Virus record (IMG/VR): IMGVR_UViG_2526164631_000021
Source: a virus
Lineage: Duplodnaviria; Heunggongvirae; Uroviricota; Caudoviricetes
DNA length: 14,800 nucleotides
Strand: one strand, 5' to 3'
Positions 8,407-11,341 of the stretch are shown piece after piece. The notes under the pieces were generated by a model. That model made no database searches. It was given only the letters and a program-made list of their open reading frames with translations, and had not been told where the DNA came from. Position 1 is the stretch's first letter. Each line of letters starts with the position of its first letter. A program made the translations under genes and the position numbers.

Positions 8407-9366
8407 ATGAAAATTTGTATCGACGACGGCTCCACCAACATCAAGCTGGCATGGACTGAGAACGGCGAATGCCGCAACGCCATCAGCCCGAACAGCTTCA
8501 AGTCGGAATGGTCTGCGCCGTTCGGTGGCTCGCAGCCTGCGAACTACATGCTTGATGGCGTGCGCTATGGTTTTGATCCGGTCAGCGATCGCTTTGTCCA
8601 GACGACCGACACGCAATACCAGTACAGCGATGTGAATGTAATCGCCATTCACCACGCGCTGGTCAAATCAGGCATCACACCACAGGAGGTGGATGTGGTT
8701 GTCACCCTGCCACTGAGCGAGTATTTCGACACAAACGCACAGCCGGACATGGCCAACATCAACCGCAAAAAAGCGAACGTTATGCGCCCGGTTGAGTACC
8801 AGAACGGTGAGGCATTCACTATCCGTAACGTGCGGGTTATGCCTGAATCCATTCCGGCAGGCTTTAAGGCACTGGCTGACATGAGTCCGTTTGAATCCCT
8901 GCTGATTGTGGATTTGGGCGGAACCACGCTGGATGTGGCAAAGGTTCAGGGACAACTGGCAGGTATCAGCCAGGTGTTTTGCGATCCACACGTAGGTGTT
9001 TCACTGATGGCCGATGCCGTGCTGTCGGTGATGGCCACTAACGGTATGCGCACCAGTCACCACATCGCCAATACCATTATTGAACATCGCCATGATGAAG
9101 CCTGGCTGCGCCAGCACATCCACAATGACGCGCATTACGCCAGCCTGATGGCGGTTATTCGTGAAAAGGAAGAAACACTGAAACAACGCGTGATCCGCGC
9201 GCTGGCGGGTTTTTCGGGTTACGGGCGGGTGATGGTTGTCGGTGGCGGGGCGGAGATTGTGGCACCCGCTATCCGCGAAGCCTGCGGAGTTAATGCGACT
9301 TTCATCGCGGACGGGGTGCCACAGTTTGCTCTGGTTAATGGGCTGTACGCAATGGACAAGGAGTAA
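8407..9366 (+). CDS. parM: ParM/StbA-family actin-like segregation ATPase
   Basis: Translation MKICIDDGSTNIKLAW...ISPNSFK...YSDVNVIAIHHALVKSG...VMPESIPAGF...LLIVDLGGTTLDV...GVSL...SGYGRVMVVGGGAEI...LVNGLY is co-linear with plasmid R1 ParM (StbA) as I recall it, including the phosphate-binding DDGSTNIKL and DLGGTTLD motifs. AAGGAAAAG RBS. Confidence 0.9.
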   Translation: MKICIDDGSTNIKLAWTENGECRNAISPNSFKSEWSAPFGGSQPANYMLDGVRYGFDPVSDRFVQTTDTQYQYSDVNVIAIHHALVKSGITPQEVDVVVTLPLSEYFDTNAQPDMANINRKKANVMRPVEYQNGEAFTIRNVRVMPESIPAGFKALADMSPFESLLIVDLGGTTLDVAKVQGQLAGISQVFCDPHVGVSLMADAVLSVMATNGMRTSHHIANTIIEHRHDEAWLRQHIHNDAHYASLMAVIREKEETLKQRVIRALAGFSGYGRVMVVGGGAEIVAPAIREACGVNATFIADGVPQFALVNGLYAMDKE

Positions 9367-9370
9367 GCCA

Positions 9371-9682
9371 ATGACGACACCAACCAGACGGATAAGTTTC
9401 TATCTGAAGCCCGCCGCCGTCAAGAACGAAGGCGAAGCATGCGCCTGGCTGGACAGCCTTACACCAGAAGCCCGCAAAAGTGGTCAACGCGTGGCTTTTC
9501 TGGCCGGGCTGGCACTACTGAAAATGAATCCGGCAGAGGCTTACCGACTGGCTGCATGGGCTGATGATGAGGCGTTATCAGTGACACAAACCAGGACAGA
9601 ACGCCCCGCGTCACAGCCAGTATCAGCCGCACAGATAACCAGTCAGATGGCCGGAAATATCCGGGCGTTATTTCCCGAATAA
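9371..9682 (+). CDS. parR: ParR-like partition adaptor (ribbon-helix-helix centromere-binding protein)
   Basis: Begins 5 nt after parM with an AAGGAG RBS; the track ORF starts upstream at 9236 and overlaps parM. The N-terminal ...RRISFYLKP...LDSLTPEAR...FLAGLAL resembles R1 ParR (...RTIAFKLNP...LDSIPQGERS...LTAGLAL...). The parM-parR order matches R1. Confidence 0.7.
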   Translation: MTTPTRRISFYLKPAAVKNEGEACAWLDSLTPEARKSGQRVAFLAGLALLKMNPAEAYRLAAWADDEALSVTQTRTERPASQPVSAAQITSQMAGNIRALFPE

Positions 9683-9687
9683 CACAA

Positions 9688-9711
9688 CATCAGGGCGCAT
9701 CCGCCCTGATG
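9688..9711 (+). promoter_or_regulatory. perfect 10-bp-stem hairpin between parR and the downstream operon
   Basis: CATCAGGGCG-CATC-CGCCCTGATG begins 6 nt after the parR stop. It is GC-rich but has no clear T-tract, so it may be an attenuator, processing site or operator rather than a strong terminator. Confidence 0.45.
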
Positions 9712-9745
9712 ACTTTAACCCGGGAGCATAAACAAGGGGGACACA

Positions 9746-10078
9746 ATGCAACACATTGACAGAGAAAAAGCGCAGCGACTGATTGAGCGGATGGAAGCGC
9801 TGGCGAAAGAAGAAAATGTCAACATCCAAAAAATAGCTGAATGTGGCCAGATAGTTCTTCGTCGTGAAAAAGACCTCAAACAACTGATGTCTGGCGAAAC
9901 CAGCAAAACATGGACTTCAGGTGAGGAGACGATTTATTGCAGCTTCTGCAATAAATCCCAGTACGAAGTCACAAAGGTGATTGCTGGACCGTCTGTTTAC
10001 ATCTGCAATGAGTGCGTGGATTTGTGCAATGAAATTATCAGGAGAGAAGTGACAGACAAAAAGGGAAAAAACGCATGA
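9746..10078 (+). CDS. protein with C-terminal ClpX-type C4 zinc-binding domain (ZBD) fused to an unrelated N-terminal region
   Basis: The C-terminal ...[38 protein letters not shown] is near-identical in pattern to the N-terminal zinc-binding domain of E. coli ClpX (...[38 protein letters not shown]...) with all four Cys conserved. The N-terminal ~60 aa is charged and helical-looking. AAGGGGGA RBS. There is no AAA+ module. Confidence 0.8.
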
Positions 10079-10410
10079 ACAGAAAACAAAAACAAGAGTT
10101 GAAATACTTCTTACGTAAAGAAATTGCCAGGCTTGAAGATGCAGAATCACAATCATCAGAAATTCCGTTCGGAATGGATATCAACGACGCCCGTATACTC
10201 CAGGCATACCGCATAGCTCAGGCTGCACTACAGGCAAAACCGTCAGATGGACTGGTTAGAGCAGTACGTTTCTATGAACTGGTAAAGCGTGAGAATCCGC
10301 CAGTCGAAACCGGAGCATGGAAAGACGCTGTTGACTGGGTGCTCAAAGAGGCTTGCCATGTTGTAAATATTGGTATCAAGGGAGGGGGATATGGCAACCA
10401 ACAACCGTAA
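10075..10410 (+). CDS. hypothetical protein, translationally coupled to the ZBD gene
   Basis: 111-aa ORF whose ATG overlaps the upstream stop (ATGA). No family recognised. Confidence 0.5.
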
Positions 10411-10585
10411 AGCAAAGATTCTGTTAGTTCGCAGAAACGATCCAGGCGTATGGCAGTGGGTGAGACTCAGCAACCGACGAATGGGGTTGATGAAATATTA
10501 CGGGATGATGGATTGCGGTTTTTGCAAAAAGCCCAGCGCGGCGCAAAACCGCTGGAAAAACCACTTTCGCATTAAAGGAGAGTGA
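10391..10585 (+). CDS. hypothetical small basic protein (start overlaps the end of the upstream gene)
   Basis: ORF 10370-10585. The internal ATG at 10391 is preceded by GGGAGGGGG and gives a 64-aa product ([30 protein letters not shown]...). It overlaps the last ~20 nt of the 10075-10410 gene out of frame. Confidence 0.4.
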   Translation: MATNNRKAKILLVRRNDPGVWQWVRLSNRRMGLMKYYGMMDCGFCKKPSAAQNRWKNHFRIKGE

Positions 10586-10586
10586 G

Positions 10587-10805
10587 GTGCCTACACTATT
10601 CAGGAAAAACTATCCGCGAAAGAGTAGAGCAATAGAATTTCTGTTTCTCATTCTGTTTATCGTGTTGATGATACCGATATCCCCGCTAATTTTTATCTGG
10701 GCAATCGGGAAAATAATTGAGCCAGTTATTGAATTGTATAACGACGTGGTATGGGCGTCGTTCAACACATTGCACAATAAAATTAATCCGTATAAGGAAA
10801 ACTGA
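10587..10805 (+). CDS. small membrane protein (one or two TM segments)
   Basis: 72 aa from a GTG start, 1 nt after the upstream stop, with AAAGGAG upstream. The hydrophobic stretch AIEFLFLILFIVLMIPISPLIFIWAIGKII is flanked by basic residues. Confidence 0.5.
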   Translation: MPTLFRKNYPRKSRAIEFLFLILFIVLMIPISPLIFIWAIGKIIEPVIELYNDVVWASFNTLHNKINPYKEN

Positions 10806-10806
10806 T

Positions 10807-11070
10807 ATGGCAACGTTGACAAAAAAAGAACAGGCATGGTTGAACGAATTACAGGACGTTCTTGATCGCTGTCCATCACCGAAAAAAATTGGTTTTTACA
10901 CCATTGGCGATAAAAACATTTACCTGTATGACCTACGCCGCATGGATGAAATCATGGAGGCTCTTGATAATCGTTCGTCGATGGATTGGTGTGTTGCTGT
11001 CCATGATATGAATGCCGGATTTGATGAAAAGATTTTGTTCCCCTCATCAGTTGAAAGCACAGCAGGATAA
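10807..11070 (+). CDS. hypothetical protein
   Basis: ORF 10717-11070. The ATG at 10807 with AAGGAAA upstream gives 87 aa and starts 1 nt after the upstream stop. No family recognised. Confidence 0.45.
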   Translation: MATLTKKEQAWLNELQDVLDRCPSPKKIGFYTIGDKNIYLYDLRRMDEIMEALDNRSSMDWCVAVHDMNAGFDEKILFPSSVESTAG

Positions 11071-11080
11071 GGACTAACAC

Positions 11081-11341
11081 ATGACAACGTTCACCGACAA
11101 AGAACTGATTAAAGAAATCAAAGAGCGCATCGGCAGCCTGGACGTTCGAGACAATATTGAACGCCGTGCTTATGAAATTGCACTGGCATCGCTGGAAGCA
11201 GAGCCAGTAGCATGGATGCATGTAAATAACGGCATCGGAATACCAGCAATAACAAGGAGTAAAGATGTTGCAGAGAGTTGGTTATCAAAAGGCTGGTATG
11301 TCCAACCCTTACATCTAGCCCAGCCTGCATCAAAGCTATAG
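11081..11341 (+). CDS. hypothetical protein (last gene of the cargo operon)
   Basis: 86-aa ORF with an AGGA RBS, followed immediately by a terminator-like hairpin. Confidence 0.5.
   Translation: MTTFTDKELIKEIKERIGSLDVRDNIERRAYEIALASLEAEPVAWMHVNNGIGIPAITRSKDVAESWLSKGWYVQPLHLAQPASKL

Follow-up and report, generated by a model that had tools for sequence, protein, structure and literature searches.

What use is a segregation machine to a virus that is almost never a plasmid? The question is raised by a stretch of viral DNA of 14,800 nucleotides (nt), IMG/VR record IMGVR_UViG_2526164631_000021 (Caudoviricetes), which is referred to as the window throughout. Here a ParMRC-type partition module, fixed in an integrating phage, follows the replication gene gpA and is itself followed by six small genes, g3 to g8. 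A preliminary description of positions 8407–11341 had treated parM, parR and the six genes as cargo placed in a known hotspot for defence genes. We consider which of these genes belong to the core of the phage, which are exchanged, and what the exchanged ones may do.

The host phage of the window is a P88-like (Xuanwuvirus) prophage of the P2 family. Among phages it is closest to P88, PhiR44_2 and further Xuanwuvirus members of the Peduoviridae, and the full length of the window is 99.93% identical to a prophage adjoining pheA in E. coli FDAARGOS_1059. All eight genes are intact open reading frames (ORFs) on the same strand, as first described, and agree with the RefSeq calls of that genome. 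The explanation that we favour, and regard as probable if not firmly so, joins a core parMRC module, a mosaic of independently exchanged genes like those of the lambdoid exo-xis region and, in g3, a mimic of the zinc-binding domain (ZBD) of ClpX. Its value is mainly corrective: the partition genes are core in P88-like phages, the hotspot begins only after parR, and its occupants here appear exo-xis-like rather than defence-like.

The partition module

The module and the gene that it overlaps are laid out as follows.

5508–8330: replication endonuclease gpA
8264–8305: candidate parC repeat 1, a direct repeat of 42 nt that falls within the 3′ end of gpA, with the 20-bp palindrome ACGGGACTCACGAATCCCGT at 8280–8299
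8337–8378: candidate parC repeat 2, 42 nt, with the 20-bp palindrome ACGGGATTTCAGAATCCCGT at 8353–8372
8407–9366, + strand: ParM, 319 amino acids (aa)
9371–9682, + strand: ParR (StbB-type adaptor), 103 aa

ParM matches PF06406 (E = 1e-82) and PF21523 (E = 1e-68), aligns end to end with crystal structures of R1 ParM (E = 3e-93) and falls in Phrog_691, annotated as 'partition protein'. ParR matches PF10784, the StbB family (E = 1.5e-24, 86 bits against a cut-off of 25); a sequence search of the PDB with ParR gave no meaningful match. The allelic classes of ParR are about 53% identical overall, with a hypervariable linker, while an N-terminal strand (RRISFYLKPA) and a C-terminal tail (NIxxxFPE) are kept. 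In the R1 plan, ParR has a DNA-reading ribbon-helix-helix at its N-terminus and a tail that binds ParM, and the conserved termini appear to fit this plan. Sharply distinct ParR alleles (window 9371–9682 and six sibling loci, L007, L014, L018, L030, L064 and L089) adjoin ParM proteins that are 99% identical, and the differences between them are concentrated in the linker, which is rich in proline and glutamine.

The two candidate parC repeats lie on either side of the gpA stop codon. They are 81% identical and 73 nt apart, a pattern with a chance expectation of 0.04, and their palindromes share the form ACGGGAyTnnnrAATCCCGT. Repeat 2 ends 29 nt before the start of parM, and its palindrome (8353–8372) is 35 nt upstream of that start. 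Both repeats are conserved in all sibling loci, and we infer that ParR binds the palindromes. Between the two allele classes of ParR the palindromes show no covariation; since the DNA-reading N-terminus does not vary either, the comparison is uninformative, not negative.

Segments 8264–9682 would together form a type II (R1-like) parMRC segregation module. The ribbon-helix-helix of ParR would bind the two palindromes at the end of gpA, and its C-terminal tail would capture ParM filaments, so that copies of the phage genome are pushed apart. The likeness to R1 ParMRC (StbA/StbB) lies in the order site–parM–parR, in the full-length match of ParM, and in the membership of ParR in PF10784 with conserved termini. 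Two differences stand out. The R1 parC consists of ten 11-bp iterons around the promoter, whereas the candidate here has two palindromes of 20 bp, each inside a 42-nt repeat, and overlaps the end of gpA. The module is, moreover, found here in an integrating P2-family phage, in which almost every copy is chromosomal.

This last point comes from 5426 complete E. coli genomes, 1307 of which (approx. 24%) carry parMR; 1453 of the 1455 copies are chromosomal. The junction of gpA with parM, counted with a fragment spanning the two, occurs in 1276 genomes, as against 1355 with this gpA type (approx. 94%), counted with the 3′ part of gpA at a coverage of at least 80%. ParR is present in all 80 IMG/VR loci, and in several phage genomes, whose ParM is at least 97% identical, and the content downstream of it varies. 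The 80 loci were picked by ParM similarity and are not used for the claim that parMR is core, which rests on the E. coli counts of gpA and of the junction. A scan of species-representative genomes with ParM found only three loci, and the lineage-wide statistics rest on the IMG/VR loci and the E. coli genomes. With the junction retained in 1276 of 1355 genomes and parMR in every sibling locus, these are core genes of the lineage: parMR is a fixed feature of P88-like phages, not the cargo that the preliminary description took it for.

Between gpA and gpQ, approximately a quarter of P2-like phages have been reported to have a putative plasmid partition system, for which plasmid maintenance was suggested (Rousset et al. 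2022, PMC9122126). That the copies in E. coli are almost all chromosomal argues against plasmid maintenance as the main role of parMR. Because the lineage is almost always integrated, the module most likely acts on the episomal, circular phage genome rather than on a plasmid prophage; the episomal phase would be that after injection, or that after excision and during replication. A parallel exists in the actin-like AlpAC system of the Corynebacterium prophage CGP3, which supports viral DNA replication (PMC4446434). In both cases an integrated prophage supplies an actin-like filament and a DNA-binding adaptor, and AlpAC acts on replicating viral DNA (PMC4446434). AlpAC differs in that it belongs to a separate actin-like family.

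The hotspot after parR and its small genes

In P2-like phages, the slot from gpA to the portal gene and cos is already known to be a variable hotspot in which defence genes can reside (PMC9122126), as the preliminary description noted. In the window it lies between gpA and the portal gene, matching the published definition of the gpA–gpQ hotspot. When 72 sibling slots were mapped onto the window to find the variable limits, similarity ended at the stop codon of parR (approx. 9683) and returned at approximately 11383 (62 of 72). The true variable hotspot is 9683–11380 only. It contains or abuts the following features, all on the + strand.

9688–9711: stem–loop of 10 perfect pairs, −22.9 kcal/mol, z −4.8 against shuffled controls, with no U-tract on the + strand
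9746–10078: g3, ClpX zinc-finger protein, 110 aa
10075–10410: g4, 111 aa
10391–10585: g5, 64 aa, basic
10587–10805: g6, 72 aa, DUF4014 small membrane protein, GTG start
10807–11070: g7, 87 aa
11081–11341: g8, 86 aa
11354–11381: intrinsic-terminator-like stem–loop, ACGCCCU-CUUCC-AGGGCGU, followed by a U-rich tail; right edge of the variable region

Several physical features of the block were described correctly from the start. The six genes are tightly coupled, with overlaps of 4 and 20 nt followed by gaps of 1, 1 and 10 nt, and a Shine–Dalgarno-like purine run precedes every start. The hairpin after parR is present, at the left edge of the variable region, as is the terminator-like element after the last gene, in which the stem–loop at 11354–11372 (z −5.2 against shuffled controls) is followed by UUUAUUUC. 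The block is also richer in AT than its flanks: its GC content is 43.9%, compared with 55.2% for parM, 55.4% for parR, 57.5% for gpA and 54.0% for the portal gene.

The proposal that the six genes form a co-inherited operon has not survived comparison. The 72 sibling loci hold 62 distinct slot sequences in at least 25 architectures, and the occupancy of individual genes among them is 19–20 for g3, 14–16 for g4, 2 for g5–g6, 7 for g7 and 9–14 for g8. Among the 5426 E. coli genomes, the whole block (at least 80% of its length) is found in 24, g3 in 112 and g5–g7 together in 10, while fragments occur in 1649, plasmids of approximately 90–100 kb included. The six genes clearly travel separately. 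The stem–loop at 9688–9711 is common to only about 23 of the 72 siblings, and therefore travels with the g3 cassette. Phage P88, for which E. coli K88 is a lysogen, has g3–g4.

What do other phages of this lineage place in the slot? IetAS occurs in three sibling loci (L044, L048 and L053; E = 4e-89 and 7e-41), an AbiLi/AbiLii-like pair of ATPase and Toprim proteins in three (L012, L028 and L057), and Fic/Doc with a Phd-like partner in three more (L021, L066 and L086). These defence or toxin–antitoxin modules, in about 9 of the 72 loci, are self-contained and often on the opposite strand. The commonest occupant is an Ead/Ea22 protein (PF13935, E = 1e-31), of the same family as the Ea22 protein L0069 of Shiga toxin (Stx) phages; this family is the hallmark of exo-xis regions. 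The slot is a real defence hotspot, without a recognisable defence system in this window. At E ≤ 0.01, PADLOC matched none of the eight proteins (one match, at E = 0.026, is at chance level), and g3–g8 match no toxin–antitoxin family in Pfam, NCBIfam or PADLOC; both absences had been anticipated. Across the same three resources, the eight proteins gave nothing beyond ParM, ParR, the ZBD of g3 and DUF4014. The small proteins do, however, belong to existing phage families: six PHROGs without known function, and DUF4014. Each of the six belongs to a cluster of dozens to hundreds of members, for which the source databases offer no informative names.

The small proteins lead instead to the lambdoid phages. 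By megablast, positions 10403–11181 are about 94% identical to Stx phages. g5 (Phrog_1380 and phrog_12350) is 93% identical to an unannotated ORF of 933W between L0069 and L0068; g6 matches PF13198 (DUF4014; E = 4e-26) and is 92% identical to L0067 of 933W; and residues 1–44 of g8 are 86% identical to L0065 (EaA-like/DUF551), with a C-terminal module that differs. All three of these 933W counterparts are located in the pL early operon, between exo and xis, and a further 933W gene, L0066, is an alternative occupant of P88-like slots. No homologue of g3, g4 or g7 was found in 933W. g4 (Phrog_26213 and phrog_660) is modular, its N-terminal helical part ending in a junction motif, '...AALQAKP', and the junction region is weakly similar to g8. 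g4 and g8 share PHROGs 660 and 60 with Ead/Ea22 proteins; neither matches a Pfam model at E ≤ 0.1, the Ead_Ea22 model (PF13935) included, and neither has a PDB match, nor g4 one in PADLOC. g7 is a prophage protein conserved across genera of the Enterobacterales, with a confident predicted fold, for which a PDB sequence search gave nothing meaningful. A literature search for DUF4014 found nothing relevant.

Two further settings of these genes were seen. A g5 homologue lies on the 98-kb plasmid p99_1145-3, probably a phage-plasmid (locus L095, 3498–3686), within a long same-strand array that includes Ead/Ea22-like, DUF4752, DUF551 and ASCH proteins, and similar matches to g5 occur on many plasmids of 86–105 kb. 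In siblings of the UTI89 type (L005, 3593–4084; also L003 and L067), the place of g5–g6 is taken by a protein of 164–165 aa of the 'XF1762 family'. Its resemblance to the DNA-modification family of Mom (PF25680) is weak (E = 1e-4; 22.5 bits, where the cut-off is 27.1) and hints at an anti-restriction function.

Exo-xis region genes are early and non-essential, and affect the lysis–lysogeny decision, lysogenisation and induction (PMC8614690); the downstream part of the region is variable (PMC8614690; PMC3824215). The block resembles this region (933W L0063–L0069; Ea22 and Orf60a/61/63/73) in the homology of g5, g6 and the N-terminus of g8, in its small same-strand genes placed with the early operon, non-essential and of variable membership, and in the frequency of Ead/Ea22 proteins in sibling slots. 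It differs in that the host is P2-like, with the array after the replication and partition genes rather than after exo, in that g4 and g8 fall below the Ead_Ea22 Pfam model, and in that the members found here have never been studied. Because the genes assort one by one among P2-like phages, lambdoid exo-xis regions and phage-plasmids, we conclude from these sequence relationships that the block is best seen as the P2-family counterpart of the lambdoid exo-xis ('ea') array. Such shared and freely exchanged genes would link two poorly understood accessory regions of unrelated families of temperate phages.

The hotspot itself is already published (PMC9122126), and the locus adds to known kinds. 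Table S5A of Rousset et al. 2022 lists arrangements of the type 'StbA + Plasmid_stab_B + zf-C4_ClpX + hypothetical x3' (PMC9122126). The locus shares the position and the hypervariability of the gpA–gpQ hotspot (Rousset et al. 2022, PMC9122126), which in P2 holds tin and old, and differs in that the hotspot of the P88-like lineage starts only after parR and that no recognisable defence system is present here.

Expression of the array in the lysogen, implied by the proposal of host-beneficial cargo, is not indicated, because the prediction of sigma-70-like promoters finds none immediately upstream of the block. The promoter scan found none directly upstream of g3 or of parM; the lone match on the + strand is weak (9/12) and lies inside g4, and by eye the region upstream of parM has weak hexamers only. 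Transcription of the array would occur by read-through from parMR or the early operon as far as the terminator at 11354–11381, possibly attenuated at the 9688–9711 hairpin. The six genes make up a low-GC, translationally coupled mosaic, exchanged independently among P2-like phages, exo-xis regions and phage-plasmids, whose products would be early and non-essential, each alone acting on host physiology, the lysis–lysogeny balance or host defences rather than as parts of a single multi-component defence system.

The ClpX zinc-binding domain of g3 and the rival explanations

The main functional lead in the locus is g3, a phage copy of the ClpX docking domain that may reprogram a central host protease. 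g3 matches PF06689, the C4 zinc finger of ClpX (64.5 bits against a cut-off of 27), and the structure 1OVX (E = 2e-19). Its domain is identical to the ZBD of E. coli ClpX at 31 of 40 core residues; all four cysteines are among these, as are Phe and Ile of the hydrophobic patch. In an AlphaFold2 model, a helical hairpin (residues 6–48) is followed by a disordered linker and a C-terminal ZBD, which superposes on 2DS5, 2DS6 and 2DS8 at 0.6–0.7 Å; a fold search matched the ZBD alone and found nothing for the N-domain. g3 was rejected as a ClpX unfoldase: it has no AAA+ module, and its 110 aa end a few residues past the ZBD. Compared with the ClpX ZBD (PDB 1OVX, 2DS5–2DS8), g3 shares the four Cys ligands and the docking patch, but it lacks the AAA+ module and carries the ZBD at the C-terminus, joined by a linker to a phage-specific helical hairpin.

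Full-length relatives of g3 are confined to prophages of Escherichia and Salmonella. Of two distant relatives, one is 44% and the other 54% identical to g3 overall; they have 35 and 33 of the 40 ZBD residues as in ClpX, and their ZBDs are closer to host ClpX than to g3 or to one another, a pattern that would fit selection to keep resembling the host domain. Both occupy the gpA-to-portal slot of P2-like prophages without parMR, and g3 is therefore likely to be separate from the partition system. No description of a ClpX zinc-finger protein encoded by a phage came up in literature searches on this subject. Within 933W's exo-xis region, L0063 (locus L004, 5873–6184; 103 aa) has a motif, CxxC...HICLNCVDVL, that recalls the ClpX ZBD; at E ≤ 0.01 the protein has no Pfam match, and the resemblance is unconfirmed.

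Removal of the ZBD leaves ClpX unable to degrade lambda O, and it is at the hydrophobic patch of this domain that lambda O, SspB, RssB and trigger factor all dock (PMC7804408). g3 could act in either of two ways. As a decoy, it would titrate the substrates or adaptors that depend on the ZBD, such as SspB, RssB or initiators of the type of lambda O and MuA, and so stabilise a ClpXP-sensitive protein; the helical N-domain would make the free ZBD dimeric or multivalent. As a heterodimerising hijacker, it would pair with the ZBDs of ClpX and retarget the protease. We put forward only tentatively the possibility that g3 and its relatives are a phage family of ClpX-ZBD mimics, recurrent just downstream of the P2-family replication gene, that act as decoys or retarget ClpXP. 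If so, a phage protein, possibly gpA itself, would be stabilised, or host proteolysis rewired during phage development.

Some points weigh against the favoured explanation as a whole. Genuine defence systems occupy the same slot in siblings, and some of the small genes may have a part in defence. Candidate parC has two palindromes, compared with ten iterons in R1. Contact of g3 with ClpX or with ClpX ligands is predicted from sequence, and read-through past the strong hairpin at 9688–9711 is an assumption. A non-consensus promoter could be present, and a parM promoter, if active in the lysogen, could express the array there. No functional annotation is available for five of the six proteins, so the suggestion of separate action on the host by each is argued from context.

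Might the six genes, with or without parMR, nevertheless be a new anti-phage defence system or other host-beneficial cargo expressed from the prophage? We think this unlikely. The setting speaks for it, as this is a documented defence hotspot (PMC9122126) that holds IetAS, AbiL-like and Fic/Doc modules in siblings; the block has a foreign base composition and is intact while the integrase is disrupted, and the small membrane protein g6 could serve superinfection exclusion. The genes themselves do not: PADLOC matches none of their products, which are all of 64–111 aa and without an enzymatic domain, and the genes do not co-occur, each being present in 2–20 of 72 siblings and the combination in 10–24 of 5426 genomes. 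Stx phages have homologues in their early lytic (pL) operon, and for the block no promoter of its own is predicted. A related reading, which we consider doubtful, makes the array a counter-defence island in which each small early protein neutralises an immunity of the host or of a competitor, g3 blocking a ClpXP-dependent defence or stress pathway. Small, early, rapidly shuffled proteins are typical of anti-defence loci, and the proteins of the array answer to this; the slot is shared with defence systems, and the XF1762-family protein that replaces g5–g6 in UTI89-type siblings is Mom-like, if below the cut-off. Set against this, no member matches a known anti-defence protein, and the exo-xis genes that have been studied affect the lysis–lysogeny decision rather than immunity (PMC8614690). 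Counter-defence overlaps with the favoured explanation, from which it differs in the target alone, and sequence cannot separate the two.

The six genes directly follow parR on the same strand, probably as part of one transcript, and this position would suit accessory factors of ParMR, with g3, for example, controlling the stability of ParR or ParM through ClpXP. This is hardly credible and is largely refuted by distribution: most siblings that bear parMR have none of the six genes, homologues of g3 sit in P2-like slots without parMR, and g5–g8 come from lambdoid phages that lack ParMR. It is also very unlikely that the small ORFs are decaying, non-functional remnants of recombination in the hotspot. 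The mosaic does have junctions inside genes, the similarity of g8 to L0065 stopping after residue 44, and the disrupted integrase probably prevents normal excision. All six ORFs are nevertheless intact with Shine–Dalgarno sites, each in a cluster of dozens to hundreds; g7 is conserved across Enterobacterales genera with a confident fold, and the ZBD of g3 is under evident constraint.

State of the prophage and further observations

The gene order of the window runs from an integrase cut by an insertion sequence (IS), through a repressor, early genes, gpA and the interval studied here, to portal and terminase genes on the opposite strand. Its outer features are as follows.

450–1448, − strand: phage integrase, truncated
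11833–12879, − strand: portal gene

The integrase is interrupted by an IS66-family element (IS679), the C-terminus of whose transposase is encoded at 11–529, and in FDAARGOS_1059 the rest of the integrase is found on the far side of the IS. With its integrase disrupted, the prophage has probably lost the ability to excise itself. The gene for the terminase large subunit is broken into several frames by four single-base indels (13199, 13896, 14510 and 14710), taking as reference the FDAARGOS_1059 prophage, in which the gene is intact. As all four fall within short same-base runs, typical of errors in long-read assemblies, they may be errors of assembly or sequencing. The picture of a decayed prophage with intact cargo, drawn in the preliminary description, is therefore borne out for the integrase, which is clearly disrupted, and weakened for the terminase, where the frameshifts may be artefacts and the contrast with the intact block is slight.

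A P88-like prophage is also held by a 226-kb contig labelled as Vagococcus sp. WN89Y, a member of the Firmicutes (NZ_JBQPOM010000071.1; locus L008). Its ParM is 97% identical to that of the window and its portal protein 100% identical to the E. coli one, which suggests contamination or mislabelling of the assembly.

In the early operon upstream of gpA, Rfam models identify the Hfq-binding small RNA isrK (4579–4653, + strand, 66.7 bits) and, beside it, a C4 antisense RNA (4689–4776, + strand, 81.1 bits), both above their gathering scores. Small ORFs follow the pair at 4833–5063 and 5136–5501. The arrangement resembles the c4–ant immunity module of P1 and P7, or the isrK–anrP module of Salmonella, here in a P2-family phage.

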